A stretch of 64,000 nucleotides of DNA from Nitrospirales bacterium (GCA_963555755.3 OY820905.2:2240001-2304000); one strand, 5' to 3'. Positions 7,017 through 39,545 are shown, numbered from the stretch's first letter. Made by a program: numbers and translations. Notes: generated by a model from the letters alone, not told the origin.

Positions 7017-7309
7017 CATTGTTGACTGGTACTCTACGCCTGATCCACCCTTAAAAAAGTGTTAAGGAAGGGGGGCGAGCCTTGACTTAAGAAGGGGGGT
7101 CGAGGCTTGACTTAATACCTTAACTTCCTTCTGGGCTATCCTATGACGTGGGATCAATCTGTGTGGGGGAAAGTTGAGCCAGTCCCAGGAAAACCAGCCA
7201 CGGCTGGCTCGAGCCGCTATTTAGTCAACCAAAGATTTGACCCCTATTTGACCCCTATTTATTCTATTTGACCCCTATTCCTAGTCAACCAAAGATTTGA
7301 CCCCTATTC

Positions 7310-8410
7310 AAACCCCGAAATTTCTTTCCCGTCCAAACATACCGATTTCGAGTAAGACCCAACGAGTATCATTACCAGCCAGCTATTCTTATTCTTTCAG
7401 AAGAAACACCTTCCCAAGCTCCTTTAACTTCGGAAGAAATCGATCTCGCAAATCACCTTCGCCACACCATTTGGCCATTAGCCCTTGGGAGTTTGAATGA
7501 CTACAGTAAGGGGTTAAATCAAAAGGGTAGTACCTCCGGGACTTGGTATTCCACTTTCCAACCTGACAAGGTTTTCGGTCGTGCTTTACTATTCCCAAAT
7601 TTACCCCCATTGTATACGGTTCTGCCAGACAATCTCGTTGCGGACCCTACCCCTTATCAAGGAGATGAGCCGTATCGGTTTGATAAAGACCATAATCAAT
7701 GGCAACTACAAGATAGGCTGTTAGCAAACCTTGGTTCGATCTGTCCAAATAATCAAGAATCCCTTTTAGAAATTTCCCGCCTGTTCCTTCTTCACGAACA
7801 CGTACATGATCATCATTGCCTCACTGCTAATACCGCAAGAGAAGTTGGAAAGTTTCAAAATTGCCTTGAGCATTTAGATTATGCTGCGGATACCTATGCT
7901 TTGTTTCACGAGTTCAACTTCGTTCGAAATTTCGACCCAGGAGGTATTGCCGAAGAAAGGGACGATATTCAATCACTAGCTAATTTGATCGAGAATTTGA
8001 TTAAATCTTTTTGGGCATTCGAACGGGAAGGACAAAATAATGATTGGGAAGTTCGTCGGCTGCGGCGCTACTTAAACTGGTACTGGCGTCATATACAAAT
8101 GAAGCGTGCACAAAGTTTAGAGGAAGCCGTTGAAATTATTGCCACCTCCCCCAAAATTGAAATCGCAGGATTAAGACAAAGGTTGAGAGGAAGACGCGTT
8201 GTGATGGTTTTAGACAAACTAGACCCAAATACACAGCTCGAATTAGGGATCGTTTTAAAGGGCGAAAGGTTTTTTAGACTTTCCCAAAGTGCCAATTCTA
8301 ATTTGCAAGGTCTTCTGAATGCTTTTTGCAATAAAGAGCATGATAAAATCTGCGACTTCTTCCGCAGCTTTTACGATTTTGCAAAACAAACTGGAGGGCC
8401 AGAAACTTAA
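7310..8410 (+). pseudogene. 5'-truncated protein: SAVED-like C-terminal segment followed by an HExxH-containing domain
   Basis: Frame is open upstream of the TTG at 7493 (KPRNFFPVQTYRFRVRPNEYHYQPAILIL); LLHEHVH motif; begins at TTGACCCCTATT repeats. Confidence 0.5.
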
Positions 8411-23172: not shown

Positions 23173-23340
23173 CTGCCCAGGCCGACCCGCATTCAATATG
23201 CCCGGGCCGTGTATCATGTTATGAACTGTGGGAGAAGGCGTCAGAGTATCTTTCATGGGGAGGCCTATTATCAGGCCTTTCTGAATACCTTCGAAGAGTC
23301 TCACCTTTGGTTTGATACGGTGATTCATACTAATTGTTTA
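23173..23340 (+). pseudogene. REP-associated tyrosine transposase (RAYT) N-terminal remnant, cut by MITE A
   Basis: Manual translation LPRPTRIQYARAVYHVMNCGRRRQSIFHGEAYYQAFL...IHTNCL; GGGGTCAAAC motif at about 23124. Confidence 0.75.
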
Positions 23341-23797
23341 GGGCACCTCTAAAAACCGTCCTTTTCCGTGATGGCGGCGTCAGCCGCGTGCTTACATCCT
23401 CATGTATTCGCCCATACATTCCGGTTTTCCGCGCGCGGCTTCTTTGCCCTCACATACAATGCCTGGTTTGTAGAGGTACCCTAAAGTAACAATGACAAAA
23501 ACAGAATCACCTAGGAGGTTTCTCGGGCTATTTCTCGAACGGTCTTTAGGGCTCGCGCAAAAATAACTTCCCCTGTTTGGGCGTCGATCCATCCTGTCTG
23601 GCGGCGTTGCTCGTCCTTTCCATACGAGGAGTATGCGCAGTCCTCGCGCCTTGCCAGATAGGCGTCTCAGCACCCAAACTGGGGAAGTTATTCTTGCGCG
23701 AACCCTTAATACAGACACTGTAAACCAGAATACAGACACTGTAAACCAGGTTTACTCTCTTTTACTCGCGAGATACACGCGTTGAAGTTTCTCATCA

Positions 23798-24809
23798 TAT
23801 GCCTTCCCATTTAACTAAGGTTGCTTCAGTTTATTGAATCCCAAGGGTTTTGAGCTGCTGGTCAGGATTTTCAACAAACTCTGGAAGGTACTCATTGGAG
23901 TCTCACGGCGGTTATAGCGAAAGACAAACTCATCAAGATAGTGTTGCAGGTATTTTGAATCCACTCCATGGTGAATCCCGTTCAGCCAGGTCTGCAGATT
24001 GCCGAACGCTCTATGGATGTGTGGAGCGTGCTTCCCAGCACTTGCTGGGTCACCCTGGGTCCGTCTCAGGTGTTCGTATCCTGCCAAGGCTTTTGCCGAG
24101 TATCCCTTCCAACCATCGGACTTGATCTTACTGCCCTCAGCGACATGGCTATTGAGGAATGCTTTGATCTCGTTCTCTCCAGCGTCTTGAAGAATCGCTA
24201 ATCGTAAACGCCCTGCTTTCTCTCGAAAGTGATCCCCTTGTGTGTACGTGACAATTTCTACGGCTCCGGCTATTAACGTCTTGGTTTTCGCTTTCGCGAC
24301 GCCACGGCCCGTTTTGCCTTTTACCGGTCCACCGATATGGGTTTCATCGGCTTCAACTGTTCCTGCGAGCCGTTCACGGTTCTGTCGTACCATTCCTCGT
24401 CGCAATCTGTGGAGCAAATACCAGGCGCTATCCACCTTCTTGATACTGAGTTGACGCTGCAATTGCACAGCACTGATGCCAGGTGTGTGCGTGGAGACGA
24501 AATAGGCAGCCCAAAACCAAAGCCGTAGCGGCAAGTGCGATCTATGCATCACTGTGCCGCTTAGCGGTGATGTCTGTCTATGACACGACGAACACTCAAA
24601 CCGGAAATATTTTTTGAGCCACCAACCACCGCGATGACCGCAAGCTGGACACATAAACCCGTCTGGCCACCGAATCGCCCGCAAGTACTCGAAGCACGCT
24701 TCTTCGGTGTGGAACCTAACAGAAAAATCCAAGATATCAGCAGCATACCCTGTGTCCATAGTCCAGCAGACTAGTCTAGGGACTAACCTTAGTCAAATGG
24801 GAAGGCATA
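23798..24809 (-). mobile_element. IS1595-family insertion sequence
   Basis: About 25-bp IRs TATGCCTTCCCATTT(A/G)ACTAAGGTT; no matching target duplication seen. Confidence 0.9.
23815..24759 (-). CDS. IS1595-family transposase
   Basis: RWPDGFMCPAC zinc ribbon, VEADET, SDGWKGY, YLDEFVFRYNRR. Confidence 0.93.
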   Translation of the reverse strand: MDTGYAADILDFSVRFHTEEACFEYLRAIRWPDGFMCPACGHRGGWWLKKYFRFECSSCHRQTSPLSGTVMHRSHLPLRLWFWAAYFVSTHTPGISAVQLQRQLSIKKVDSAWYLLHRLRRGMVRQNRERLAGTVEADETHIGGPVKGKTGRGVAKAKTKTLIAGAVEIVTYTQGDHFREKAGRLRLAILQDAGENEIKAFLNSHVAEGSKIKSDGWKGYSAKALAGYEHLRRTQGDPASAGKHAPHIHRAFGNLQTWLNGIHHGVDSKYLQHYLDEFVFRYNRRETPMSTFQSLLKILTSSSKPLGFNKLKQP

Positions 24810-24866: not shown

Positions 24867-25904
24867 TTAAGAGGTTCGGTCAATCATGTAATGGAGACTT
24901 TTCTGGATGAAGGCTTTGTCGTCGCTCTCCGGGGCATCTTGATAAGCTTCAACAAAAACTTGTTCGGCTGCATCACGGAGTTCACGCGCACCAGACCGCG
25001 CGTACTCAATGCTTCCATATGTGTTCAGCAACTCCATCACCCTGTCAATGTCCTCAGCATACTTGCCATTGCGCGACTTAGATAGAAAGCCCTTCAGTTT
25101 CTGGGTCTCCTGCGGTGATCCTTTCCCAAACAAGTGGGAAAGCATGAGCGTCCGCTTTCCCTCGTAGAGATCTCCGGCAATTTCTTTACCGTATTTCTGC
25201 CGACTCCCTGTAAGATTCAAAATGTCGTCCTGAATCTGAAATGCTGAGCCAAGGAGATTTCCAAATGAGTTGAATCGGTCAAGGTCGGTGTCTTCAGGAC
25301 GTGCAATGAGTGCACCGACTCGGCAGGGATTGATAAAACTATACCAGGCAGTTTTCTTTAAGGTCATGAGGAGATAGTCCTCATCTGAAATATCGCACCG
25401 ATTGTCCCGGTTCCACCCTAGCTCAATAGCTTGTCCCTCGTGCGTCACCCTGCTCATGGTGTGGAACTCCTCCTCTAATTGACGTACTAGGTTGGGACTC
25501 AGGGTAGAGCCATTCTTTCTAAAGATACTCCAGCCTAACGCTTGCATCGCATCACCGACATTTACAGCGATTGGAATCCCGTATTGGGCATGCATGGTCG
25601 GATGGCCCCGTCGAAACTCACTCCCGTCTTCGATGTCGTCATGAACGAGAAACGCGTTATGGAGCATTTCAATCGCCGCTGCCGAGACAAGGGCATCCTC
25701 GATGCGACCTCCAAAGGCGCCACAAGTGGCCAGACAGAGAGCCGGGCGTAGCCCCTTTCCCGAACGTTCCAGAAACTCTCGTATCGGGGTGTACAAATAA
25801 CGACGCGGCTCTTTGTCGGGGATTGATCTTTGCAAGACGTCCATTATCTGGCGACGATAGTCATTCAACCGTTCAAGGAATGCGTTGTAGTCTTGAGAAT
25901 CCAT
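24867..25904 (-). CDS. Polyprenyl diphosphate synthase (GGPP synthase-like)
   Basis: GKGLRP, LVHDDIEDGSEFRRG (FARM), EGQAIEL, KKT, FQIQDDILN (SARM), DLYEGKRT. Confidence 0.93.
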   Translation of the reverse strand: MDSQDYNAFLERLNDYRRQIMDVLQRSIPDKEPRRYLYTPIREFLERSGKGLRPALCLATCGAFGGRIEDALVSAAAIEMLHNAFLVHDDIEDGSEFRRGHPTMHAQYGIPIAVNVGDAMQALGWSIFRKNGSTLSPNLVRQLEEEFHTMSRVTHEGQAIELGWNRDNRCDISDEDYLLMTLKKTAWYSFINPCRVGALIARPEDTDLDRFNSFGNLLGSAFQIQDDILNLTGSRQKYGKEIAGDLYEGKRTLMLSHLFGKGSPQETQKLKGFLSKSRNGKYAEDIDRVMELLNTYGSIEYARSGARELRDAAEQVFVEAYQDAPESDDKAFIQKSLHYMIDRTS

Positions 25905-25929
25905 GGATCGATAAACCTATTGGGGGTTC

Positions 25930-27999
25930 CTAACGTTGTTGCACAATTCGAAGCCGGGCAGGCTGGCGTGTTTGACCTTTATCCTCCGAACCCTTCATTG
26001 TCTGGGCGAGATCTCCAGGGCTTCCGCCTACCTCTTTTTGACCACCTTCTGGTGGAACGATCTGCCTTACCTCCTCCAACATCGATTGCACGGGTTTTGG
26101 TATGTCCAAGAGGTTTTCCGCCTGTGGTATCGGACTTTCGCTAAACGGCTGGGTGAGGTTGCTCACCGCATCATAAGCCTCTGAAAAACTTTTCAACGAA
26201 CCACCGTCAATGTTGGAGAACTTACTGGCCTTTTGAAACACATCGAGTACCGGTTTCGCGATACTCATCAGGGCTAATGGGTCTTCCCAGGGTAGATGCT
26301 TTTCCCAACGGGCCCGGTCATATTCACGCCACGGTTGCAGAATCTCGGGCTCATGGAGCTCCCACACTCGGCAGGGGGTCGCGTCGGACCCAGACCGGTC
26401 GAGGATCCCATTGACGGCCCTTCGGGCGGCCTCATTCGCCGACTCCATCGTAGCCAGGTCAGTATGGGTTCGGACATAGTCGGAGGCAAGGAACAGGTTC
26501 GGAATGGCGGTGACGGCGTCGGGCCTCAGGCGCCACGCGTCTATCAGATTCACGAGAAGTGGCTCGACGTTCTCGTGTCGCCGCCTTTCTTCGGGATCCC
26601 GACGGATATCCGGATCCAAAAACCAGTAGTCCAAATCCTCATCCCGCAGGACCTCCCTTCCATGCATATCGTTCAAGCTGCGCTTAAGTTGTTCCCAGGT
26701 CTCGTTTGCGATTTCCTCACGGGTGCAGTCGCTGGCCCTTTTACCATAGAGCACCCCCTCGGTTTCCCAGTCGGAGATATCGACAGAGAGAATGTCCCTG
26801 GTATCACCGTCACTGAATTTGGAAAGATCGAAATCGGGCCAGAACTGAGCTTGCGACACTGAAGTGAGAGCCCAAGGGGTGTCGATGAAGATGACGTGGC
26901 CATGAGTAATCGGCACCAGGCGAGTGACGTAAAACATGATGCCGTTCATCCACGCGACGTGTGTCGCTAGTTCCGGCAAGTGGCTCAGCCGTGGATCGGC
27001 TTCGCGAAGGCTCAAGTTGACCAAGGGGGCCATCCGTTCTACGGGGAGGGCAGACACGTAATAATCGCCTTGTACCTCGGTTGTCATACCATCCTTTTCC
27101 ACCGTGACACTTCGCACCTCTCCGCCGGAGCAGTTGAACGACTGTACCACACAATTCATGTGGTATTTCACGCCCCGACTTTCTAAATAGTCCAACCACG
27201 GTCGAATCCAGACAACATTAGTTGGTCCGTTGAGCAAACGGTCGCTCGTCGCGACGGTCGGATCAATAATATCAAACACCAGTTGAAGGAAAATGTTCCC
27301 AATCGTCCGTGTGTTGGCACGCTGAGCCTGGGAGGCGACAAGGGAACGAGTAATTCCATGACCGAAGAATTTTTGATAGTCCTTGGATTGTTTGGCGGCT
27401 TCGATGAATTCCCACCACCCGATTTGTTCATATTCGTCCAGCCGGCGTTCTTGGGAGGAAGTCGCGATCTGCCAGACCCGCGACGCAAAGAGGTGGACCT
27501 CATGAAGGGGCACCCCGATATCCCCGGATAATAGTTTGAAGACCGCATCAAAAACGGATTTGAACCCTTGGGGGGTCCTCGGAAATCGGGCGGGAAGAAC
27601 GATTTCCTTGCCGCCCTCTCTTGCCAACAACATCTGAGTAGTGTTGACCATGTTGTCAGAGACCTTCCCGTTCCCGTATGGGATACGATCCATGGTATCG
27701 ACAACGTGTTTGTAGAAACCGGGAAAGAAGCGAAAGCCGTGCTCCCCCGGTAACCAAGGACGCTTTTCGTGCGGCGCCAACTCATGCCCTTTCATCCGAC
27801 GCCACTTCTCGATGGCTGGACCGTGAATGGCTTGGCTTCCTCGGTCATCCAATGATTCAAAAACGGGAATGCTGCGCGCCTTGCCTCCGGGGATGTATTG
27901 CTTTTCGTAGACTTCGACATCAAATCCACGCTCAGCCAGCTCGTGAGCAGCGCTCATTCCGCCGATACCCCCACCAAGTATAATTACCTTTTTGGGCAT
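25930..27999 (-). CDS. FAD-dependent oxidoreductase, phytoene desaturase/HpnE-like, with long C-terminal extension
   Basis: GGGIGG...EKQYIPGGKARS, EHGFRFFPGFY, NLFLASDYV...ATMESANEAARRAVN. Confidence 0.88.
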   Translation of the reverse strand: MPKKVIILGGGIGGMSAAHELAERGFDVEVYEKQYIPGGKARSIPVFESLDDRGSQAIHGPAIEKWRRMKGHELAPHEKRPWLPGEHGFRFFPGFYKHVVDTMDRIPYGNGKVSDNMVNTTQMLLAREGGKEIVLPARFPRTPQGFKSVFDAVFKLLSGDIGVPLHEVHLFASRVWQIATSSQERRLDEYEQIGWWEFIEAAKQSKDYQKFFGHGITRSLVASQAQRANTRTIGNIFLQLVFDIIDPTVATSDRLLNGPTNVVWIRPWLDYLESRGVKYHMNCVVQSFNCSGGEVRSVTVEKDGMTTEVQGDYYVSALPVERMAPLVNLSLREADPRLSHLPELATHVAWMNGIMFYVTRLVPITHGHVIFIDTPWALTSVSQAQFWPDFDLSKFSDGDTRDILSVDISDWETEGVLYGKRASDCTREEIANETWEQLKRSLNDMHGREVLRDEDLDYWFLDPDIRRDPEERRRHENVEPLLVNLIDAWRLRPDAVTAIPNLFLASDYVRTHTDLATMESANEAARRAVNGILDRSGSDATPCRVWELHEPEILQPWREYDRARWEKHLPWEDPLALMSIAKPVLDVFQKASKFSNIDGGSLKSFSEAYDAVSNLTQPFSESPIPQAENLLDIPKPVQSMLEEVRQIVPPEGGQKEVGGSPGDLAQTMKGSEDKGQTRQPARLRIVQQR

Positions 28000-28571
28000 T
28001 TCTTTGCTCCTTGCTGAGTTTCCGTTGTCTGCTCTTGGCCGAGCCTCCCGGCTTGGTCTCTTCAGGGGTTTAGACTTAAGCCACGGACACTCACTTGATT
28101 TCCTTTCACTAAACTAAGACTTCACCTCCTGCCGGTATTCGCCAATGAAAGTTACCCTCCTTGTCGGATTCCTCTTTCTTGGCAATGCCAAGACTTTAGA
28201 AAAATAAAAATCCGTGTCTTCGCCTTTGTGTGCATTGAAACGGTTTTATCATCAGGCACTCTTCTCTATCGAGAATTACTGATCAGGTCACTAAATTGTT
28301 CGTGTCCACGTGTCAATATAAGAAACTGGCTTCCACGGAACTTCTGATCTTTCCACTTTTTTGCGTCATTCCCGCCTGTCGTAAGCGGGAATCCCTCTTG
28401 TTCCGTCCGGATGGATACCCGCCTCAAACCGCGGGTATGACGGCTAATGCCGGAGTTGGCTTGACCTCGTGCATAACACTATTGCGTGGCCATGCCACCA
28501 CCCGAGAGGCGCAGAAAAAATATGTCGGTCATGCCGCTTGATCGAATCGTACGCACTATTTACCGGTTTCC

Positions 28572-29168
28572 TCAGTAATTCCTTGGATCCTTAAGGTAGA
28601 GTCTTGTACTAGACTGCCATTCTTCCCCCTCATCAATAATGATTTCGATTGGGAATTCCGGATCGAAGGGGTGCTCGCCCTCACTTGGCATGTCAAATTT
28701 TAGCGGGTCTGGGCTTATATCATCATGCCCCAATGCATCTATTTTTTCTTTTTTTTGTGGTTCATCGGTTTTTTTATCGCCCCCAATATCACGGTAAAGG
28801 CCATCCATGAATCTTAGCGTCACCTTTATTTTATTATCCTTATCCATGTCTCCGCCTTCGTTCTTGATTTGTATGTGAATCTGCCACTTAGGTATATCTA
28901 TCCATTTTCCGTTTTCACGCGTTTTGTCCTTTCCAGAAAGGTATCCCCAAGAAGGTATGGGGACCAATTTAGGAGGCTTTGGGGTGGTATCTGAGAAAGC
29001 ATCTTTAAGAGCCTCAACGAGTTTATTTTGGTCTTCGCTCATTTTGCCACTCCTTTTCTTGGTGGTTGTCTTTTTACGAGGTGGTTTCTTTGTGCTGCTT
29101 GTTTTCTTAGTGATTGTCTTTTTACGAGACGATTTCTTTTTGACAGGTTTTTTCTTCATAATCGTCAA
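28572..29168 (-). CDS. Hypothetical protein with very basic Lys-rich N-terminal tail
   Basis: KKKPVKKKSSRKKTITKKTSSTKKPPRKKTTTKKR; starts 24 nt after the encapsulin stop, with a GAGGGGG RBS. Confidence 0.7.
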   Translation of the reverse strand: MTIMKKKPVKKKSSRKKTITKKTSSTKKPPRKKTTTKKRSGKMSEDQNKLVEALKDAFSDTTPKPPKLVPIPSWGYLSGKDKTRENGKWIDIPKWQIHIQIKNEGGDMDKDNKIKVTLRFMDGLYRDIGGDKKTDEPQKKEKIDALGHDDISPDPLKFDMPSEGEHPFDPEFPIEIIIDEGEEWQSSTRLYLKDPRNY

Positions 29169-29192
29169 TACACCCCCCTCTGTTTTCTAGAG

Positions 29193-30095
29193 TTAGGATG
29201 ACATAAGCCAAATAGCTTCCGGTTGCTTGATGCGGAGGGTTAAGCGCTGGGACACGCGGTAGATTTGACGAGTCTCCTCCGTGGCCTGGAGAAACTTAAC
29301 TGAGATATCGTTGGCTAATACAAGGTCAACATTTTCTCCGGCAAGCGATACCAGAACTCCTTCCATATTGGTTAGTGTGCTGGACCTTAGTAGGGGACCA
29401 TTCAATATGGGTTTGATGCGGTCAACAGGCATAACAAGTGAGCTAGTAGGTGTATGAGCCAAATCAAAGAGGTCTGGTCCTAGTACGAGGGCGAATGGAG
29501 ATAAATGCCCTTCTCTTTCGAGGTTTGTGATCATATTCGAGACCCGCCTCACTAACCAGTTTCCGGTGAGCCCAGCCACAGTGCCGGGAATGCTTGTAAA
29601 GTGTCGTGGGGTATTATCTAATCGAGCCGCTTGAGTGAGCCCATTCCATTGTTCTCCGCCCGTAACGTTAAAAACTGGAGGCATCGGAGCAAATGTACGG
29701 GCGCGAATAACGGTTCTCTGCCCTTGAAAAACCAGGTTGTCCTGGATCCGAGCAAGGATCAACGCCGCACGTCGAAACATGTTGAGAGCGCCGGAAAGGT
29801 CTGGATCTTTGGCCTGCGCGGTAGTGAGCGGAACATTCACTGAGACGGTTGTGAGCGCTCGAGTCGTTACGGTGTTAACAGCTAGGCGGCTGGTCGCGAT
29901 ACCAACAGCTCGGGGAAGAGGCTGATTATTAACAAGTCTGTTTATCTGCACTGATTCCGTTTCAGGAGGCAAAGGCCCATGGATTGGCAAAAACGTTGCG
30001 GCGACGCGGACTTTGCGTACTTCATCACGAACTGTCTGCTGCACGAGGTTCCATTGGTCATCCGTCCATTGATTTGGGTAATTTTCCTGTTCCAT
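29193..30095 (-). CDS. Family 1-like (Linocin M18/HK97-fold) encapsulin shell protein
   Basis: 300 aa; WTDDQWNLVQQTVRDEVRKVRVAATFLPIHGPL, RRAALILARIQDNLVFQG, LEREGHLSPFALVLG, VDLVLANDISVKFL...RLTLRIKQPEAI match the recalled family pattern. Confidence 0.8.
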   Translation of the reverse strand: MEQENYPNQWTDDQWNLVQQTVRDEVRKVRVAATFLPIHGPLPPETESVQINRLVNNQPLPRAVGIATSRLAVNTVTTRALTTVSVNVPLTTAQAKDPDLSGALNMFRRAALILARIQDNLVFQGQRTVIRARTFAPMPPVFNVTGGEQWNGLTQAARLDNTPRHFTSIPGTVAGLTGNWLVRRVSNMITNLEREGHLSPFALVLGPDLFDLAHTPTSSLVMPVDRIKPILNGPLLRSSTLTNMEGVLVSLAGENVDLVLANDISVKFLQATEETRQIYRVSQRLTLRIKQPEAIWLMSS

Positions 30096-30223
30096 AGCTT
30101 CTTCCCCTCTCTTTATTGATTCACAACTATAAATAATAAGATGGTTCTGGGTTCCTTATTAAAGGTCTTCAAGATATCTGAACTCGTATCAATCGTTTGG
30201 TATCGACATCTGCCCCTCGAATC

Positions 30224-31099
30224 CTAAAACAATCCATACAGGTCGTATTCATAAACAGGCTCTTTCATCACGACCCGACCGATTCCGATGCATTGTAGTC
30301 GGTTGACCCATAAGTACTTGGGGTGAGCGGTGATCATTCGTGGGGTTGTCCTTGTGGGTGGCGTCGGTGGCCACTTTTTCTTCAGAAAGTTTTCGTATCC
30401 GTTCTCACCCAATTCGAAGTAACCCGGGTAGTGGATAAAGATCATTGCCCCATCTCCGGTCTCCAGGGTGGCACGCACATCCATGAGCCCAACCCCGTCC
30501 CGCCGAATGGTCATCCAGTCACCGCCTTCGTGATTTATCTTTCCATTGAGCTTTGTTCCGGTAACCTCACCACTGCTTATGTACCAATTGACCTTAATGC
30601 CCTCCGGAGTCTCTCCGATGATCTCTGGGTCACCGCCGCCAAGATGAATCGTAAAATGGCAAAGGTATTCGAGGCTGAACGGCAAACGTCCTTCAAGCAG
30701 ATTTGGTTGAGATGCCGCGTCCAGGATAGGGGTAGGCGCGGCGGCCCGTGGGACTTCAAATTGACGGTTCAGACCCGTCACAGCACATGGGTCCGGAACT
30801 CGGCGCCCGCTATTTTCGCCGATGACGGTATACTCGACCTTCGACCCAGGAAGGAGCCTCGGAAAGGATACTTTGAAGTACTGTCGCCCGGCACCCTGTT
30901 CAGTTCGCAACAGGGTTGCGCGGACGGTGCGCTCGAAACCTCCATCGACACGATACAGTACACTTACCGTATTGCTTGGATTCGCAGGAGAGACACCTGC
31001 TATTACACTGAGGTTATCGGCGGAATCCACAACCCCATCGGGCGCGGGGGTGTCCTCTGTGCCATACCATAGTGTGAGCCCCTCGTGGGTGTAACGCAT
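30224..31099 (-). CDS. DUF3237-domain protein with N-terminal Ig/CBM-like domain
   Basis: IGETPEG...GEVTG..LNG...GGDWMTIRRDG..MDVRATLETGDGAMI...RTTPRMITAHPKYLWVN. Confidence 0.8.
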   Translation of the reverse strand: MRYTHEGLTLWYGTEDTPAPDGVVDSADNLSVIAGVSPANPSNTVSVLYRVDGGFERTVRATLLRTEQGAGRQYFKVSFPRLLPGSKVEYTVIGENSGRRVPDPCAVTGLNRQFEVPRAAAPTPILDAASQPNLLEGRLPFSLEYLCHFTIHLGGGDPEIIGETPEGIKVNWYISSGEVTGTKLNGKINHEGGDWMTIRRDGVGLMDVRATLETGDGAMIFIHYPGYFELGENGYENFLKKKWPPTPPTRTTPRMITAHPKYLWVNRLQCIGIGRVVMKEPVYEYDLYGLF

Positions 31100-31188
31100 C
31101 GCCCTTTCCCCTCTCGGCTAAGGTCCGTTGACCCGCAAGACCCGCAGGCCCTCATTGCTTGATCACCCTGCCCTTTGGTTTTTGTGTA

Positions 31189-34100
31189 TCATGGCGATTC
31201 TCTCAACTCCTCGATCAGTGCGAGCGCATCAACAAGGTCAACCATTTTCTTTCCTTTTTCTTCTCTAACTTCTTGTTTAACTTCTTTTTTTAAGGAGTGG
31301 TAAAGCTTCTGAGCTTCTTGTTTAACTTCTTTTTTTAAGGAGTTGTAAAGCTTCTCGAGGATCTGGAGCGCCTCTTGCTGTTTCCTCTGCAGTTTCGACA
31401 GCCGGACTAAACCTACTGCCGCTCGGATCCCCAGCATGAGAGCTTTCTGATTACTTGCGGTTGACAACGCCCTTTTGAAATAGTCTTCGGCTTTGGTAAA
31501 ATCGGGAGCTGCATTCTCTGTTCGAGCCTCAGCTTCGGCACGTTGTTTTAAAATCTCTGCCTTGAGGCGATAGAGCTCAGGTTCCATGAAATGCTCGTTT
31601 CGGTCGGGGTCGGTGGCCTCGCGGATTCCTTCGTCCAGTGCATCGAGTGCGTCTTGGGTTCGACCCGCCATCCACAGAACCTCTCCACGCATTGTCATCA
31701 TGTCAGGCAGGCAAATCTTAGTACCGGTGGGTCGAAACTTTTCAAGCCCCCTTTCGATCTCGTCAATCCCTTCCTCGATTCGGCCCTTCTTGGCTATTGC
31801 CCAACCGTGGTAGATCAGGGCGATCGTATCCCAAAGTTGAAAAACCTCCTTTTCGGCAAGCTCCAGCACTTTGGCTGATGCATTCTCTACCCACTCAAAG
31901 TTACGGGCGGAATGGTAGGCAAAGCAGCCGATACCATATGCGAAGGCAATACTGGGCGGATGTCCGAGCTCTTCAGCGAGGGCTACAGCCTTTTCGATCT
32001 CCGCCAGGCCCGATACCGGCTCGCCCAACATCCACTTGCTGCTGCCGCAGAACTCGTGCAATGCCACCGTAGAAGACAGCTGAAACATTTGGATGATTAT
32101 TCGTTCCTGCTTAAGGTTGAACCGGCTTATGCCCTGCTCCGCATGCTTCTGCGCCTCTGTGAATTGTCCTTGATAGTGGTAAGAGTAGCCGATCGCATGA
32201 TGCGCCCCTACCCACAGGAGGGAGTTATCGGTAGCCTTAGCCATCTGGAGCACCTCTTTCCCCTTTTTCAAGGAGTCGTTCATCTGTCCACGCAAGAAGT
32301 AGTTGAAGCATAAAAACCATGTTGCCGCATATAGACTTTGCCCGTGACTCGTAACGTCTTCTGACTTTTGGGCTCGTACCGCTTGGTCCAGTAACTTTTG
32401 GGCAAGGGGGATGGCGCGTTGGCAGGCTTTTGTTACTTCCTCAGATCCCCATCCTTTAGTGATGCTGTAGGCCTGGCCAAGGCCGAGCTGCATCGCCAAT
32501 TCCATTTTGTCGCGCTCGGGGCTTTCAGGTAGCCCTTCGAGAAGGTCCAGACCCTGGGTCAGGTGGCCAATAGCTTCAGAGTTTGCGGACCGTATCAGCG
32601 CCCGATCACCCGCCTCCTTCCATTTCGGAATAGCCCATTTAGGGAGCCCCGCGTGGGTGTAGTGATATGCTAAGAGCTCCGGTTCGGACTCGGCCGTGGA
32701 TGAAAACTGATCTTTCAGCACCTCGGCGATCTGCTGATGGAACTCGCGCCTCGAGTCTTTTAATAAAGACTCGTACGCTGCCTTCTCGATCAATGCGTGC
32801 TTGAAAATGTACGTCGCCTGAGGTGACAGACCTTGCTTAAACAATAGTCCTGCATCTTCTAGTCGTGTCAGTTCATTCCGCAAAGTCGTCCCCTTGACCG
32901 TAGACACCGCTTCAAGGAGCTCGAAGCTAAACTCTCGGCCCAGTGTCGCTCCCAGCTGGGCTACCTGTTTCGCTGTAGATAGTCTGTCTAAACGGGCCAT
33001 TAATAAGTCTTGAAGTGTGGAAGGAATCTCCTCTGAAAGTGTTCCTGATAGCTCATATCCTTTTTCCAGTGGTTGGAGCACCCCAGATTCCATTAATGAT
33101 TTGGTGAGTTCTTCTACGAACAACGGCACTCCGTCTGTATTATTGATGAGATGTTTATTAACTTCTGTAGGTAACGTTTTGCCTTCTACTACCCCCTGTG
33201 CCATGGCTATCACCTGCTTATTGGTCAGGCCTTGCAGCGGGATGGCATCCAAGTTCGGTCGGGCCTCCCACGGCGGATTAAAGGCGTATTCCTTCCTATT
33301 CCTATCAGGTTCTTTAGTCCGGAATGTGAGTACGACCAGAACTCTTGCCTTTGGGGATTGGTTAACCACCATGGTCAGCCAAGCTAGCGTCGTCGGGTCG
33401 ATCCAGTGCAGGTCTTCGACGATCAGTAGCAAGGGGCGGCTAGGCGATGTCTCCAATAGCAAAGCTACCAGTACTTTGAGCGTCTCCTGCATCTGAGTCT
33501 CGGGAGTAAACTTAAGAGGTGTGTCGATAGGCACCGACAGGAGTTTGGCCAGTAGAGCCACTGCTTCCTCATTGAAACCGTATTTTTTGAGGGCGTCCTT
33601 CAGTCTGCGTAGTTTGGCATCATCGGTATCTTCCTCTCCAAGGTGCAGCTTCTGCTCTAATAGATTGACGATGGGGTAGAGCGCAGTGTTTTGGTAAAAT
33701 GGGGAGCAGCGGTACTCCTGAAGGGAATGTTTTTCGCGTTTGAGCCTTTGTTTCAATTCATCGACCAGACGCGATTTTCCGATTCCGGGGTCTCCACTTA
33801 TCATGACTACTTGGCCCATGCCATCCTTGACTCGCGCCCACCTGTTGAGAAGCAATTCTATCTCGCCGTCCCGGCCCACCAGAGGCGTTAGCCTGCTGCC
33901 TAGGGCTTCTAGACGACTTTTAACCCCACTCTTCCCAATCACGCGTCGGAGATTTATGGACCGGGAAATACCTTTTAGTTCATGTGGCTCTGGTTCTGAG
34001 GTTTCGAAATAGCCATTGACCAAGCTATGCGTCTCTTCGCTAATCACAACGGTATTGGGTTCCGTCCGGTCCTGTATTCGAGCGGCCACGTTTGGGGTTT

Positions 34101-34719
34101 CCCCGATGGCGAGGATTTTTTGGCTATCGCCGGTCCCAACCTTTCCCACAACCACTTTCCCGGTGTCGATCCCAATTCGCAATCTAAGGTCATCAACGCC
34201 AAACTGCTTCAAGGAATTGTTCAAATTCGGCAGCTCTTCCAGTATCTTGAGAGCGGCGTAGACCCCCCTTAAGGCATTGTCCTCGTGAGCTACAGGATGA
34301 CCAAAGTACGCCATTACCCCGTCCCCCAAATTTTGCGCGATCATTCCTCCAAAGCGACTGACAGCTTGGGCACAGTGGTTATGGTATTCATCCACTACTT
34401 TCTTCTGATCTTCAGTATCTAGGGTTTGAGATAGACGAGTGAAATTCACCACATCACAGAACATCACGGTTAGTTGGCGCTTTGAACTCAGTATTTCCCC
34501 ATGCTCTTTGAATAGAACAGGTGTCGTCTCAGAGCTGCCAGTCCAGACCAGCACGCCGCCCTCCTCACGGGCGAAGCGTTGACCTTGGATGATTTCTGTC
34601 TTCAGGTCCTCGAGGTACCCGTCGTCTAGATCGAATTCTCTCTTGAGTGCCCCATACGTTAGTCGCTTTCGGCGCTCAAGCAATTTCTTTGTAGCGTCCA
34701 AAATCTCAATGAAGGTCAT
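31189..34719 (-). CDS. Class III adenylate/guanylate cyclase - AAA ATPase - TPR multidomain protein
   Basis: VMFCDVV, LGDGV and GETPNVAARIQ; Walker A GDPGIGKS; LIVEDLHW; TPR-like C-terminus. Start placed at MTFIEIL. Confidence 0.92.
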   Translation of the reverse strand: MTFIEILDATKKLLERRKRLTYGALKREFDLDDGYLEDLKTEIIQGQRFAREEGGVLVWTGSSETTPVLFKEHGEILSSKRQLTVMFCDVVNFTRLSQTLDTEDQKKVVDEYHNHCAQAVSRFGGMIAQNLGDGVMAYFGHPVAHEDNALRGVYAALKILEELPNLNNSLKQFGVDDLRLRIGIDTGKVVVGKVGTGDSQKILAIGETPNVAARIQDRTEPNTVVISEETHSLVNGYFETSEPEPHELKGISRSINLRRVIGKSGVKSRLEALGSRLTPLVGRDGEIELLLNRWARVKDGMGQVVMISGDPGIGKSRLVDELKQRLKREKHSLQEYRCSPFYQNTALYPIVNLLEQKLHLGEEDTDDAKLRRLKDALKKYGFNEEAVALLAKLLSVPIDTPLKFTPETQMQETLKVLVALLLETSPSRPLLLIVEDLHWIDPTTLAWLTMVVNQSPKARVLVVLTFRTKEPDRNRKEYAFNPPWEARPNLDAIPLQGLTNKQVIAMAQGVVEGKTLPTEVNKHLINNTDGVPLFVEELTKSLMESGVLQPLEKGYELSGTLSEEIPSTLQDLLMARLDRLSTAKQVAQLGATLGREFSFELLEAVSTVKGTTLRNELTRLEDAGLLFKQGLSPQATYIFKHALIEKAAYESLLKDSRREFHQQIAEVLKDQFSSTAESEPELLAYHYTHAGLPKWAIPKWKEAGDRALIRSANSEAIGHLTQGLDLLEGLPESPERDKMELAMQLGLGQAYSITKGWGSEEVTKACQRAIPLAQKLLDQAVRAQKSEDVTSHGQSLYAATWFLCFNYFLRGQMNDSLKKGKEVLQMAKATDNSLLWVGAHHAIGYSYHYQGQFTEAQKHAEQGISRFNLKQERIIIQMFQLSSTVALHEFCGSSKWMLGEPVSGLAEIEKAVALAEELGHPPSIAFAYGIGCFAYHSARNFEWVENASAKVLELAEKEVFQLWDTIALIYHGWAIAKKGRIEEGIDEIERGLEKFRPTGTKICLPDMMTMRGEVLWMAGRTQDALDALDEGIREATDPDRNEHFMEPELYRLKAEILKQRAEAEARTENAAPDFTKAEDYFKRALSTASNQKALMLGIRAAVGLVRLSKLQRKQQEALQILEKLYNSLKKEVKQEAQKLYHSLKKEVKQEVREEKGKKMVDLVDALALIEELRESP
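31270..31356 (-). repeat. 45-bp in-frame tandem duplication in the cyclase C-terminus
   Basis: KLYNSLKKEVKQE / KLYHSLKKEVKQE. Confidence 0.85.
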
Positions 34720-34879
34720 GCCCGCCCCCTCTGAACAGAATGCTAAAAAAGACCGCCAGCTGCGTTCTCGGTCGCTCAGCCTCCGCAGGTCACAATAAAT
34801 ACCCTCCGAGGGCATTGCTTCTTCGCGCCTTGAGGATTTTCAATACCACAGTTTTTACAGTTCAGTTCCATTCTCAGTT

Positions 34880-35137
34880 TTATCTTAGCTTCGAGCTATG
34901 CATCTTTCTTTGCTCATTGAACCGACCAGATGTCGTTTCAGAGCCGCCAGTCCACACCAGCCGTTCACCGCTCTCATCAACGGCGAAGCGTGGATCTTTG
35001 ATGATTTCTGTCTTCAAGTCCTCGAGGTACCCGTCGTCTAGATCGAATTGTCTCTTGAGTGCCCCATACGTTAGTCGCTTTCGGTGCTCAAGCAATTTCT
35101 TTGTAGCATCCAAGATCTCATCGTACGTCATGACCAA
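34880..35137 (-). pseudogene. Duplicated N-terminal fragment of the cyclase gene
   Basis: MTYDEILDATKKLLEHRKRLTYGALKRQFDLDDGYLEDLKTEII is nearly identical to the cyclase N-terminus; upstream DNA is also duplicated (period about 412 bp). Confidence 0.8.
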
Positions 35138-35322
35138 CCCCTCTCATCAGGATGCTGAAAAAGACCATCAGCAGCGTTCTTGGTCGCTCAGCCTCCGCAC
35201 GCACCAACATGTACCCTCCGATGGCTTTGCTTCATCACGCTTTGAGGATTTTCAATACCACGATTTTTACAGTTCAGTTCCATTCTTGTGTTTATCCTAG
35301 CTCTAAGCCCTGTCCCTGTTTA

Positions 35323-36102
35323 TCAGAGTCCTCGTTCATCACAATCCGTTCCAGAGCCCTGGTCCTTCACAGAAAGCTGGACCATCGCTTGTAATTGGTT
35401 AATGTCTTCTGTCTGCAACAAACCGCCATAACTGCCTTGTGGCGTCCCGGTGGGGACTCGAATCTCAATGTACCCGTCTACCTTGTCCCCAGGCTTGATC
35501 ATTCCCGAATTCGGGTGCACCGTTATTTGTGCCTCTGGAATTCTGTGCCCCGACATGCCAACGAGGTCCATGCTATACAGAGTAAAGTCGGCCGTTTCTT
35601 TCGGGTCGTCATTTATTAGAGTGAAGGGAATGCGACCGGTTTTGCCTGGGCTCACCGGGAAAGGAAATTTGAGAGAGGAAAGATTTGGAAAATGTTCATC
35701 TTCTATTGGGAGCTCTTCAATGCTGGCTAATTGGGATGCAATTTGGGCTGGTTGCTCCATCCGATTCTCAAGCGCATCGACCAAGGTAATACCCAATTTG
35801 GTGACCTGTTGGTGGCATTCCTCTATGGTGGTCTCAGGACCAGGCGGTACCCCTTGGAGGGTCTTTCCCATCTCCTCCGCGTTTCGACCTGTTTGGCTAT
35901 TGAGCTCGTCGTTAAGGACGGCGTTGGCTTTCTGAACAATAGATGGTGTGGCTTTCCCGGAATCAAAAGAGGGGCGTTCGGGGATGCTGTTCTGGTTTGT
36001 TTTTGTCCCTGCTCGGGTAATGACATTCTCTAGGGTTGAAGGCTCAGCCCCTAAAGTTAAGACCGGTATGCTCTCTCGGTGTACCATAAAAAAGAACTCC
36101 AA
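35323..36102 (-). CDS. Hypothetical protein with C-terminal Ig-like beta domain
   Basis: PGKTGRIPFTLIND...IEIRVPTGTPQGSYGGLL; lies in the co-oriented cluster; start uncertain. Confidence 0.65.
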   Translation of the reverse strand: MEFFFMVHRESIPVLTLGAEPSTLENVITRAGTKTNQNSIPERPSFDSGKATPSIVQKANAVLNDELNSQTGRNAEEMGKTLQGVPPGPETTIEECHQQVTKLGITLVDALENRMEQPAQIASQLASIEELPIEDEHFPNLSSLKFPFPVSPGKTGRIPFTLINDDPKETADFTLYSMDLVGMSGHRIPEAQITVHPNSGMIKPGDKVDGYIEIRVPTGTPQGSYGGLLQTEDINQLQAMVQLSVKDQGSGTDCDERGL

Positions 36103-36138
36103 ACGGAACTTAGAAAAGTGCGGTTTTAACCATGGAAA

Positions 36139-36756
36139 CTACTCAAGGGAAGGCCCCAGATTTAATGCCGCTGCCCTTTTGTAATTGCTAATGCTAATAG
36201 GATTGCTATCTCTATTCGCTCCCTTTTTACTCGTTTCGGTGCAATCGACAAAACTTTCGAAACATTCTTTGAACCAAGGAGTGTAAATGTGTTCGTTGGC
36301 TTTCATATCATTTAATAATTCGGACAGATCTACGAAAGCTAAATCGGCAACTTCCTTTGGATGAGGATAAACTGAACCGGTGTGGTGACCCAGGAAGACA
36401 TGGTCAATTTCATACTCACCCCATTTTCGAGAATATTGATATGGGGTCGGGTATTTGAATTTAAAGAGGAATTTCACATCACAGGTAAAGCCCAACTCTT
36501 CCTCAAGCCGTCTTTGCGCGGCCAAGGTTATTGGCTCTTCAGGCCTGGGATGCGAGCAGCATGAATTTGACCAGAATCCTGGCCATGTTATCTTCAAATG
36601 ATTCCTCTTCTGTATAAGGAGCTGTCCTTTTTCATTGAGGATGAATATTGAAAATGCTCGATGGAGTTTTCCCGGAAAAATATGCGCGGCATATTTCTCC
36701 TCAACACCGACTTCATTATCATCCTCGTCAACGAGCACTACATATTCTTCTTCCAT
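36139..36756 (-). CDS. idi: Isopentenyl-diphosphate delta-isomerase, type 1
   Basis: LHRAFSIF, WSNSCCSHP, RRLEEELG, EYEIDH, TPWF. Confidence 0.95.
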   Translation of the reverse strand: MEEEYVVLVDEDDNEVGVEEKYAAHIFPGKLHRAFSIFILNEKGQLLIQKRNHLKITWPGFWSNSCCSHPRPEEPITLAAQRRLEEELGFTCDVKFLFKFKYPTPYQYSRKWGEYEIDHVFLGHHTGSVYPHPKEVADLAFVDLSELLNDMKANEHIYTPWFKECFESFVDCTETSKKGANRDSNPISISNYKRAAALNLGPSLE

Positions 36757-36975
36757 TCAGCAATTTCCTTTCGTACATCAAATCAGATATGAGTCATTGT
36801 TATGCCAGTAGGTGCAGGATGTGATCCCTGACATTGAAAGAACCAGCTAAGCCTGATTTCTAACTCAAATCTCTTTGCCCAAGATGTCATGCGGGCAAAT
36901 CTTCTTGCCAAACCCTCCCCGATCCCATGCCCTTGGCTTTGAACATGGTGGAGCTGGAAATTGGTTTTTTCACTA

Positions 36976-37656
36976 TTACAATTTTTTCCATAAGGCTTTT
37001 CTCATGCCCGTTTCGCGTAATCGATAATGACTAAGGTTTCTTATAGGCTTGAAAGTTGAGAATTTATTTCCCTTCCCAAAATGCCTTGCGCGGGAATTTG
37101 GCCTCGAGATTCCTTTGTGATCGCAAAGAGGGCAAGTATGGGAAAGATTTTTGGAGATTAATTGGGTGAAGGCAGGGAACTTCGAAAAGACTCTTGAAAG
37201 GGCAGAGTCAAGAAGGTCCTTGCCTTGATGGGAACGAATATTTAATGGGGAGAGCTTTAATAACTTTTTTGGGGAAGTATGACCCTCAAGACTATATGAT
37301 TCCTTGAAACCTTCCAGATATTGGAGATGAGGAATTTGGCTGTTGCACCGGGTTGCCCAGGTGTGTAACCCAAGGAAATTGGACCAATTAAATTCATAAG
37401 AGCGGAAGTAACCGAGCACCCCGTATTTCCAAACAGGGGAATGATACTCGGAAACATTGTGGGGTACCCAGTGTTCCATAGGTTGTGGCATCCAAATCGT
37501 AACAACACCGACACCACTTCCTGTGGAAGAGACCTTACATCGTGTAATGTCTGGGATCTCAGACCGTTTAAGAATGGAGGTCTTGATGGGAGAAGGAGCT
37601 AGCTTCTCTTCGGTCTTCAATCCCTTTTGAGAAAATTTTTTGGTTACGGGATTCAT
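36976..37656 (-). CDS. Hypothetical protein, first gene after the sigma54 promoter
   Basis: 226 aa ORF with AAAGGAG RBS and -24/-12 promoter 50 nt upstream; no family recognised. Confidence 0.5.
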   Translation of the reverse strand: MNPVTKKFSQKGLKTEEKLAPSPIKTSILKRSEIPDITRCKVSSTGSGVGVVTIWMPQPMEHWVPHNVSEYHSPVWKYGVLGYFRSYEFNWSNFLGLHTWATRCNSQIPHLQYLEGFKESYSLEGHTSPKKLLKLSPLNIRSHQGKDLLDSALSRVFSKFPAFTQLISKNLSHTCPLCDHKGISRPNSRARHFGKGNKFSTFKPIRNLSHYRLRETGMRKALWKKL

Positions 37657-37706
37657 ACTGCTCCTTTTGGATTCTCCATTTCAACTCTTTTTCTATTTTG
37701 TGAATA

Positions 37707-37723
37707 AGCAAAAGGTGTGCCGT
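37707..37723 (-). promoter_or_regulatory. Sigma54 -24/-12 promoter
   Basis: Minus strand ACGGCACACCTTTTGCT (GG-N10-GC). Confidence 0.75.
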
Positions 37724-39424
37724 GATTGAAAATTCTTAAAACAGATAGGTCGTATCACGCACTCATTGCGGTTTTCCACATCGTGGTTCCGCGGAAAAAT
37801 CAGGAAGACTATTCAGAAAAATGGGAAGGAAAAATTGAGGATGGATTACGTTTCTTTAGTCTGGGGTTTTCAAATTAAGGATAGTTGTCCTTAATGAACT
37901 TTAGACTTTTCATTTCAGGCCACTATGGACCTGTAGTATATTTATATCTGTTATAACGTAGACCCCATTTTTCAACATTGTCTGGTGAAGTGTAGGTTCG
38001 GTAGATGTGGTTGTGACCCGTGCCCATCGTCCCGTCGCACGAAAAGCCAGATGGGTTCCCGCTAAAATCTGCAGGAATGATGTTTCTCCACGAGGATAGG
38101 CTAAAAACTACGAGGTAGTTTTTCCATGACAGTGACTGGCTACTTCACATTTCACTCGGCAATGCCTGGAAGATGAAATGCAAGGTTTTACTGTGAGCTT
38201 CACTTCAATAATTTCCTTCATTTGCCTGTCATACATCCATCTGAACTCAAAATTTTCACCAATTATGGATTGTTCTCACTACATCAAATTCTCGAATCAC
38301 CCAGGAAGATTTTGCAATTGGCCTCCGTCAATTCGACTCTACCTTGTGTAGATAAAAATGCCCTTACTCATCATGATGGTCAATTCTTCAGATCGTGTTC
38401 CTTGCATAATTCCTTTATGGGATTTTTTTTGATCACGCGCCAACGTCTGATCGTGTTTTCCTTCAGCATGCTTGGCCAACATTCCAACTATTTCTTTCTT
38501 AATCATTGAAAAAAAGGCGTCGCGCCCCCGACTCCCGTGTGGAACGCCGTGTACTGAAAGTGTGTACGTCGTTGACACTATTTTTCGTGAAAAAGAGCCG
38601 TCGACGCAAAAGGTATCGGAAAATGCCTTATTGGGTTCAATCAAAGATTGGCATAGGAATTGAATTCTCAATGATAAGAATGCGGATGGCCGAAGTTGTT
38701 TCGGCCTCGTGGGTTCAGGTCTCATCCTTCCAGGGAAGGTGCAGCACCCACCTTACTTTGCCGTGCAATTTCTCCTCCTCCTTAAATTGGCATGGCAAAA
38801 GAGGCCTGAGCTCACGGAAGGGGGACGCTGCCTCCTCCTTCACTCCACCCCCTGCAGGAACGCCAATCTCCCCTGCAGGGGATGGACCCAAAAATTTCTC
38901 CATCGACAGGGCGAATGTTATTAAGGAATACATCGGTCAGAACGCGTTGGCATCACCTCAGCCGCCGCCACCCGCAGCCATTCAAAACAAAGAGAAGAAA
39001 AAAGTCCTGGATGCCCGTTAACTCCTGCGGGCATGAAGGATTGGGGTTCGGACAGGCAAAAGGCTCTGGTCCTCTAGGTTTGACTCACCATCGCCCCCTC
39101 TGTCATTCCCGCAGTTGTTAGCGGGAATCTATCTTGCTTTTCCTGCGCTTGCCCTTACGAAAACCTGCCCTCGTGCAGATGGGGGCGAGGACGGGGATCC
39201 AGGGTACGTAATGGGAATGTTGAAAAAAGCCGCCAGCGGCGTTCTCGCCCTTTTGCCGTGCTCACGTACTGAGAGTACGCTCCGCGCGTCAAAAGGGCTG
39301 CGGCCTTGCTGGATAGACCCTTCGGAAAGACTCAGGGCATGCTTTTTTGAACATTCCCTCCCACTGATGCGAGCCGTCTTTCCTGGAGCATCTATGGGTC
39401 ATGGACCTGAAATATTCAACAGGC

Positions 39425-39545
39425 CCGTAATGTCGCCCCACAAATCACGCCAACCTGGCGTTGTCGCGCTCAATGAGAGAAAGTTTCCAGGCACGGTTCC
39501 ATTTCTTGAGCTGCTTTTCCCGAGTAATGGCGTCGGACATGGTGT
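39425..39545 (-). pseudogene. GIY-YIG nuclease C-terminal remnant
   Basis: SDAITREKQLKKWNRAWKLSLIERDN, frameshifting to PGWRDLWGDI. Confidence 0.7.

Follow-up and report, generated by a model that had tools for sequence, protein, structure and literature searches.

In a 64,000-nucleotide stretch of the chromosome of a Nitrospirales bacterium (GCA_963555755.3 OY820905.2:2240001-2304000, hereafter the window), we analysed a gene cassette at positions 24867-37723 in which an encapsulin shell gene lies among genes for isoprenoid-type enzymes and a nucleotidyl cyclase. The cassette is a real, conserved and horizontally spread system of five genes. Our preferred reading, to which we give a probability of roughly 0.5, is that a Family 1 shell of the 'New' clade packages a prenyl-modifying pathway through non-canonical tags. 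Direct support covers the fold of the shell, the co-occurrence of the genes, a co-transfer signal and the specificity of the motifs. The elements on which this reading is built are the following:

29193-30095, minus strand: Family 1 encapsulin shell of the 'New'/'Minor' clade, 300 residues (PF04454 and AlphaFold2 fold)
25930-27999, minus strand: flavin adenine dinucleotide (FAD) oxidoreductase (PF01593), with a phytoene-desaturase fold core at residues 1 to about 575 and a low-confidence linker at residues 584-679
25933-25962, minus strand: C-terminal tail motif of the FAD enzyme (residues 680-689), consensus RLRIVQ, candidate loading or docking peptide
24867-25904, minus strand: polyprenyl diphosphate synthase (PF00348, E 1e-63), which many relatives encode as a fusion with the FAD enzyme
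30224-31099, minus strand: DUF3237 protein (PF11578; UPF0311 structures), with a barrel at residues 142-288 and an N-terminal domain of about 120 residues
31189-34815, minus strand: class III nucleotidyl cyclase, STAND-type ATPase and TPR protein (PF00211, PF13191, TPRs), likely start at 34719
35323-36102, minus strand: helix and Ig-like adaptor protein, likely start at 36087, with no Pfam match
35905-35946, minus strand: portable amphipathic helix (residues 53-66 of the Ig-like protein), candidate loading or docking peptide

Identification of the shell protein

The shell protein matches PF04454 (Linocin_M18), its sole Pfam domain, with 73.9 bits for a gathering score of 24.3. Its score against NF041155, the NCBIfam equivalog of Family 1, is 90.8 and lies below the cutoff of 100; despite this sub-cutoff score of the window member, a Ruegeria relative is annotated as a family 1 shell. 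An AlphaFold2 model built from an alignment of 58 sequences reached a pLDDT of 92.6, and its top Foldseek match is the EncA shell of M. xanthus (E 3.8e-21, TM 0.74/0.81), all the matches listed being encapsulins. A sequence search recovered 237 homologues, the closest named ones belonging to Nitrospirales. Judged by profile and predicted fold, the protein is a Family 1 encapsulin with the HK97 fold, as the preliminary description of the locus had proposed, and by analogy with measured relatives it probably forms a particle of about 35 nm.

The GPxGxG T3 motif is absent from the shell, in which the conserved G40-P41 is followed by L-P and not by x-G-x-G, and the Pfam scan found no cyclic-nucleotide (cNMP)-binding domain in the protein. 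No second encapsulin gene is present in the genome, which is 99% complete. The preliminary description had noticed no dye-decolorising peroxidase (DyP) gene nearby; we found no DyP N-terminal domain anywhere in this genome. A prophage capsid identity was rejected, since no relative of the shell was found in viral contigs, phage records or PHROGs and the neighbouring genes are metabolic.

Some shells carry additional domains. A TIG domain is fused to the C-terminus of one relative (P0085), similar extensions are found on three others (L040, L054 and L055), and elsewhere small TIG- or CARDB-like genes lie 3' of the shell gene, possibly providing an outer decoration. The window has a gene at this position:

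28572-29168, minus strand: Lys-rich protein, with weak homology to small CARDB-like proteins whose genes come right after the shell gene in the nearest relatives

The Lys-rich protein is 26% identical to the L001 protein (pairwise E 2e-9), and CARDB was found in that of L002. Its open reading frame (ORF) shares the frame of the shell gene, two stops lying between them. From these resemblances, it is possible that the Lys-rich protein decorates the outside of the shell.

Conservation and transfer of the cassette

The gene neighbourhood was compared over 160 loci, 80 each from GTDB (the best of 108) and from metagenomes (the best of at least 231); 54 of the 160 have at least 8 kb on each side and are called well-flanked. 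Beside the shell gene, these 54 encode the FAD enzyme in 54 cases, the polyprenyl synthase in 54, the cyclase-STAND-TPR protein in 53 and DUF3237 in 50. The corresponding counts among the 80 GTDB loci were 77 (FAD), 74 (synthase), 72 (cyclase) and 70 (DUF3237), and both enzymes were present in 85/85 loci with at least 5 kb downstream. The 80 GTDB loci fall into eight gene orders and nine named phyla, with a single Bacteroidota bin, near-identical to cyanobacterial loci, that may be mis-binned. The FAD enzyme and the synthase form one ORF in 76 of the 160 loci. Within the phylum of the window, the FAD gene was found in 2 of 401 genomes, and the shell in the same 2. The preliminary description had left its reading to stand or fall with an HK97/encapsulin fold and with the joint occurrence of shell and prenyl genes; both were found, shell, synthase and FAD enzyme co-occurring tightly across phyla, and assembly has been demonstrated for a homologous shell (bioRxiv 10.1101/085266). 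Its isoprenoid cluster holds for the synthase and the FAD enzyme; the idi gene, present in 0 of the 54 well-flanked loci, is a local addition.

The FAD enzyme family far outnumbers the shell clade (7769 of 8000 candidates were scored). We therefore examined 28 loci chosen on FAD similarity alone from 1054 genomes of four other phyla. A shell was present in one of them, the closest; no shell, DUF3237, tail or cassette-type synthase was found in the other 27, which served as shell-less controls. The synthase of control L200 was rejected as a prenyl partner, being a housekeeping gene of a menaquinone region.

FastTree phylogenies cover 81 FAD and 69 shell rows, without partial genes or the fused metagenome loci. 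On the FAD-core tree, a 100* branch separates the cassette enzymes from 11 controls. Distances in the shell and FAD trees correlate with a Spearman coefficient of 0.72 over 68 loci, a descriptive value as pairs are non-independent on a tree. The FAD-synthase fusion corresponds to one change on the FAD tree and two on the shell tree. Six loci scored as separate without tail were set aside: by eye, five look like frameshift-broken fusions and the sixth (L036) is in fragments.

On plasmids, only 2 of 17 FAD matches align through the C-terminal tail, both from Ruegeria and both with the whole cassette including the shell. On Streptomyces plasmids, an FAD enzyme that lacks the tail is encoded together with a synthase and DUF2236, and there is no shell. 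Thus the tail is not needed for the FAD-synthase pairing as such, and the link between this enzyme and a prenyl synthase also exists apart from the shell.

The FAD enzyme, the synthase and the C-terminal tail

The best fold match of the FAD enzyme is the rice phytoene desaturase (PDS) 5MOG, with a Z score of 31.6, a root-mean-square deviation of 2.8 over 445 aligned residues and 17% identity. PDS ranks 4 Z units above the next fold, and amine oxidases and oleate hydratases come behind. The protein scores below the cutoffs of the NCBIfam carotene desaturase models, and a sequence search of the PDB with it returned Rossmann-motif matches only. An identity as the hydroxysqualene dehydroxylase HpnE was not retained: the TIGR03467 score is 83.8 for a cutoff of 283, and HpnC/D neighbours are lacking, the squalene synthase/phytoene synthase (SQS/PSY) genes being elsewhere in the genome. 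The FAD enzyme is a core cassette gene and a likely cargo.

The synthase keeps both aspartate-rich motifs, which are conserved among relatives, and its nearest solved structure is the geranylgeranyl diphosphate (GGPP) synthase 1WMW (E 1e-52); by this resemblance it is likely of GGPP type. It scores 189.2 against NF041169, the model of Family 2 polyprenyl transferase cargo, for which the cutoff is 450. A FadL/TodX outer-membrane transporter gene adjoins the synthase in the close relatives L082, L084 and L121.

The RLRIVQ-like tail is found on 89 of the 120 nearest FAD homologues with a strict pattern and on 105 with a looser one. It ends unfused FAD enzymes, where it follows a variable linker of low pLDDT, and is missing from fused ones; Family 1 targeting peptides usually sit at the end of such a linker, as stated in the 2016 survey of encapsulins (bioRxiv 10.1101/085266). 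A tail profile with a threshold of at least 11 recovered 19 of the 9222 ORFs of the shell loci, namely 17 FAD enzymes, one DUF3237 paralogue and one 72-residue ORF, and 0 of the 2396 ORFs of the 27 shell-less controls. It also placed the FAD gene of the window first of 7445 frames on its own chromosome. As the profile was trained on FAD tails, its FAD matches are circular and it is the controls that carry weight.

The amphipathic helix and the Ig-like protein

The Ig-like domain is related to the NEW3/Ig repeats of giant surface proteins; a structure-atlas search with the protein returned unnamed clusters only. The Ig gene is present in 18 of 22 unfused loci, the other four being cut contigs, and in 0 of 76 fused ones, a distribution that amounts to one evolutionary event. 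In some records the Ig domain is naturally fused to DUF3237 or to ADC-like enzymes.

The helix has a consensus of roughly D/S-L/I-V-x-x-A-x-x-I-L-x-E-E. Of 127 Ig homologues, 115 have the helix ahead of the Ig domain, as compared with 2.7% of shuffles. A profile trained on Ig proteins only, applied to loci of at least 9 kb with a threshold of at least 15 bits, detected the helix in 50 of 82 other shell loci and in 1 of 27 controls. It lies on the strand of the shell gene in 63 of 67 loci, and is carried by the Ig-like protein, by tiny ORFs or by the N-terminus of ADC-like enzymes. After the FAD-synthase fusion it is kept as a stand-alone tiny ORF. Their distribution and sequence context suggest that the tail and the helix are likely loading or docking tags for the cassette enzymes. 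At L165:11404-12729, in the related genome G359, a helix and Ig protein takes the place of the DUF3237 N-terminal domain, and the cyclase gene is separate from the other cassette genes.

DUF3237, idi and pathway chemistry

Within the DUF3237 family, PhnH catalyses the addition of a hydroxyl across an alkene, and PhcF/G and PinX are decarboxylases; the enzymes characterised in these reports work on phenolic substrates (PMC11969235, PMC9942872, PMC12607616). By analogy, the DUF3237 protein is likely a cofactor-free tailoring enzyme. A beta-sandwich is only a lead for its N-terminal domain, the structure-atlas search having returned unnamed clusters only.

As the preliminary description had seen, no SQS/PSY or terpene cyclase gene is among the window's cassette genes. 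The remaining isoprenoid gene of the run is an accessory one:

36139-36756, minus strand: type 1 isopentenyl diphosphate isomerase, idi (PRK03759, 167.5 bits for a cutoff of 127), lineage-specific accessory

None of the 80 GTDB loci has idi; the gene was found in L121 and L165 only, and in several lineages ispH or idi joins the cassette. Beside the Bradyrhizobium cassette L038, a fusion at 5068-8286 combines an ADC-like region, DUF3237 and a P450-like domain with its heme-cysteine motif; L046 and L131 have ORFs of 1072-1073 residues similar to this fusion.

The cyclase-STAND-TPR protein

The metal-binding Asp, Walker A/B and N-x-A-x-R motifs of the cyclase protein are conserved. A Gln is common in the cassette cyclases at what we take to be the position where adenylyl cyclases have Lys. 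Among loci, the cyclase gene moves, inverts and varies in its N-terminal domain. In the window its 5' end is flanked by a duplication:

34911-35302, minus strand: tandem partial duplicate of the cyclase 5' end, 394 bp, 85.5% identical to 34502-34890

This duplicate, which the preliminary description had missed, leaves an 85-residue copy of the cyclase N-terminal domain at 34880-35137.

Two known classes were considered for this protein and set aside. The score of the TOMM kinase/cyclase fusion model TIGR03903 is 542.6, below its cutoff of 705.75, and the match begins at model position 278. For Pycsar, PADLOC returned domain-level PycC matches only and no effector, and no cNMP gene lies nearby. 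As a 'CRP' neighbour cluster of 24 loci mixed kinases with cNMP proteins, the cNMP-binding genes were recounted, giving 15 of 64 shell loci vs 1 of 22 controls. The genome of the window has two cNMP-binding matches, both more than 0.8 Mb from the cassette. The cyclic-nucleotide control advanced in the preliminary description thus draws some support from the count over loci but none from the surroundings of the cassette here, and is a weak inference. Distant STAND-type ATPase genes were also seen beside shell-less FAD homologues in 7 of the 27 controls (L179, L187, L189, L190, L192, L194 and L195), which may point to a link between FAD enzyme and STAND proteins that does not depend on the shell.

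Transcription and flanking elements

The nine ORFs of the preliminary description are present, all on the minus strand and in the order given, and profiles confirmed the identities of idi, of the cyclase with AAA_16 and TPR, of DUF3237, of Linocin_M18, of the amine-oxidase-type FAD enzyme and of polyprenyl_synt. A single transcript was not confirmed, a 572-bp gap preceding the FAD gene, and the two elements at the head of the run fared less well:

37706-37723, minus strand: sigma-54-like site, compatible with chance
36976-37656, minus strand: doubtful ORF outside the conserved cassette (GC1/2/3 = 0.43/0.43/0.44, no frame preference)

The sigma-54 promoter that had been placed there, GGCAC-N5-TTGC at 37708-37721 on the minus strand, has C instead of T as its first base and is at chance level, a relaxed motif giving 39 matches on the chromosome for about 37 expected. 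The first 'hypothetical' gene shows neither codon periodicity nor a preferred frame, and none of the loci contains a homologue. Scans for sigma-70 promoters and terminators gave signals at or below the level of shuffled sequence. RNA contigs X1 and X10 cover small patches of the region at low depth.

Downstream, the cassette is bounded by a mobile element that had also been overlooked:

23798-24809, minus strand: IS1595-family element right after the synthase, bounding the cassette and not part of it, with 38 chromosome matches of at least 900 bp

At least 26 identical copies of the IS1595 protein suggest a recent burst. Two short repeat families, resembling miniature inverted-repeat transposable elements or repetitive extragenic palindromes, were found at window positions 23320-23710 (327 BLAST matches on the chromosome) and 39208-39430 (305); the repeat at 23320-23710 has high depth in the RNA contigs.

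Proposed mechanism and alternatives

Under the packaging reading, IDI and the GGPP-synthase-like enzyme would supply a C15-C25 prenyl diphosphate, whose chain the flavoenzyme of phytoene-desaturase fold would desaturate, isomerise or hydrate. The DUF3237 barrel would cyclise or decarboxylate by acid/base chemistry without a cofactor, as PhnH and PhcF/G do. The unfused flavoenzyme would be caught via its RLRIVQ tail, either by a groove of the shell directly or via the helix and Ig adaptor, and the portable helix would be the docking tag of the whole cassette. A single flavoenzyme-synthase fusion would have made the tail and the Ig domain dispensable while the helix was retained. The cyclase-STAND-TPR protein would be a sensor outside the shell that gates the system. 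The full version of this proposal comprises a multi-enzyme isoprenoid pathway in a Family 1 shell, two new tags and an Ig adaptor providing the first adaptor-mediated loading, an undescribed terpenoid made without SQS/PSY or a classical terpene cyclase, cyclisation by DUF3237 and switching by an NLR-like cyclase sensor; taken as a whole we regard it as tentative, and rather doubtful.

Several observations weigh against packaging of a prenyl pathway. Neither the genes of the window nor the core genes of the 160 loci gave a terminal match to a canonical GSL-type targeting peptide, and the synthase has no disordered extension like that of Family 2B cargo. The fused FAD-synthase proteins, which are the commoner form, have no tail, so the tail cannot be the sole loading route. 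The tail and the Ig gene were lost on the same branch, with one change on the FAD tree and two on the shell tree; this shared loss is a single independent event and fits binding of the tail to the Ig domain as well as to the shell. In 32 of the 82 shell loci, some of them clipped by contig ends, no helix was detected. No SQS/PSY or terpene cyclase gene is among the recurring neighbours of the cassette across loci, and the two SQS/PSY genes of the genome are located elsewhere. Finally, oleate hydratases and amine oxidases constitute a second clear fold family for the FAD enzyme, and its prenyl substrate is consequently deduced from the neighbouring genes.

The same peptides could build an enzyme complex instead of marking cargo, the tail binding the Ig domain and the helix binding the synthase or DUF3237, with the enzymes outside or on a shell that stores or presents a hydrophobic product. 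The restriction of the Ig gene to unfused loci (18/22 vs 0/76) and the natural fusions of the Ig domain to DUF3237 and ADC-like enzymes speak for such a complex, as does the resemblance of the tail to a beta-strand that might add to a sandwich. It accounts less well for the survival of the helix as a stand-alone tiny ORF after fusion, for the absence of the tail from shell-less loci with FAD enzyme and synthase, and for the fact that in the controls examined the tail is never present without a shell. We hold it to be somewhat improbable.

A signalling or conflict module seems to us unlikely. In this reading the STAND-TPR cyclase would respond to some trigger, which might be a capsid-like surface such as that of the cassette's shell, and the prenyl enzymes would produce a lipid that serves as signal or effector. 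Such a module would explain why the cyclase is as constant as the enzymes (53/54), why the distribution is patchy (2 of 401 genomes of the phylum), the excess of cNMP-binding genes in shell loci and the STAND-type genes that flank 7 of 27 shell-less FAD loci. However, PADLOC detected generic cyclase-domain PycC matches without effector, no cNMP receptor is near the window cassette, and a cyclase gene that moves, inverts and varies its N-terminal domain behaves like a loosely coupled regulator.

The fold ranking also allows a flavoenzyme that works on a non-isoprenoid lipid or aromatic compound, hydratase- or oxidase-like, the synthase giving only a prenyl donor or a quinone-like acceptor. The folds that follow PDS most closely are those of oleate hydratases and amine oxidases, 26 of the 27 shell-less homologues have no nearby synthase (the remaining one being housekeeping), and the characterised DUF3237 enzymes of the reports cited above use phenolic substrates. 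Yet PDS leads the next fold by 4 Z units, the flavoenzyme is fused directly to the synthase in 76 loci, and idi or ispH was recruited beside the cassette in several lineages, which makes this substrate class quite unlikely. That the shell is a passenger beside unrelated genes, its true redox cargo being encoded elsewhere, agrees with the missing canonical peptide and with the secondary cargo known outside operons (bioRxiv 10.1101/085266), but it is largely refuted by linkage across phyla and gene orders, has no DyP in the genome to rely on, and is very improbable.

If packaging of a prenyl pathway is correct, Family 1 shells would extend from redox and iron cargo to biosynthesis, and the system would offer an orthogonal loading tag for a cage of about 35 nm and a pointer to an unknown terpenoid. 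For the 'New' class, shells have been known since 2016, and neither cargo nor function is named in the literature we found. The anatomy of the cassette offers two concrete peptides and one adaptor that make the cargo question testable, and cultured hosts with the cassette exist in Acaryochloris, Ruegeria, Bradyrhizobium, Variovorax and Roseiarcus.

Comparison with known systems

By sequence and fold, the nearest solved shells are M. xanthus EncA and the Q. thermotolerans IMEF shell, which are T=3/T=4 Family 1 particles. They are about 22% identical to the window shell and have iron cargo with a GSL-type peptide, absent here. Streptomyces plasmid loci with FAD enzyme, polyprenyl synthetase and DUF2236/MpaB have the same flavoenzyme family beside a prenyl synthase; they differ in that no shell, DUF3237 or cyclase is annotated nearby, the tail is absent and the genes are convergent.

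Terpenoid compartmentalisation has reportedly been observed for the 2-MIB and geosmin shells of Family 2B. Like the cassette, Family 2B terpenoid encapsulins have a shell gene among terpenoid enzymes and a proposed cyclic-nucleotide link, and terpene-cyclase and polyprenyl-transferase cargo is assigned to Family 2 in the 2021 survey (Andreas & Giessen 2021, PMC8346489). The shell here belongs to another family and has no cNMP domain, and the synthase has no disordered extension and scores far below the NF041169 cutoff. Membership in the Family 2B polyprenyl transferase/terpene cyclase encapsulins was rejected on the absence of the cNMP domain and on the cargo-model score. By analogy, the system likely works like Family 2B terpenoid compartments without belonging to them.

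In the table of the same survey, the B. jicamae, Roseiarcus, Ruegeria, A. marina and Nitrospiraceae relatives are listed as Family 1 with cargo type 'Minor', Acaryochloris having one Family 1 row; according to the legend, 'Minor' operons are without defined cargo or targeting peptides, and the text does not handle them as one class (PMC8346489). A literature search that covered mostly journals outside subscription found no follow-up on the cargo or function of the 'New' class after 2016, and no paper tying encapsulins to DUF3237 or Family 1 shells to adenylate cyclase and terpenoids.

The closest described system is the 'New' cluster itself, whose members lie in similar gene clusters, often with lipid or isoprenoid genes and a P-loop NTPase, and whose shells measure 35, 36 and 37 nm for A. 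marina, M. acidiphila and a Geodermatophilaceae strain (Giessen & Silver 2016, bioRxiv 10.1101/085266). A. marina MBIC11017 is our locus L048, with a 38% identical shell (E 1e-53) and the same cassette. The isoprenoid genes, the P-loop NTPase and the absent GPxGxG motif are shared with the window, which adds idi and the Lys-rich gene to what the 2016 text describes. The novelty claimed in the preliminary description was therefore overstated, the class and its isoprenoid/NTPase neighbourhood being already in that text, and its terpenoid-nanocompartment idea is plausible and was partly anticipated in print. The sections of the 2016 text on the cluster name no cargo, targeting peptide, DUF3237, FAD-synthase fusion or Ig/helix adaptor. 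The window locus is thus a new member of a described class, and what is new here is the anatomy of the cassette and its two cassette-specific motifs.

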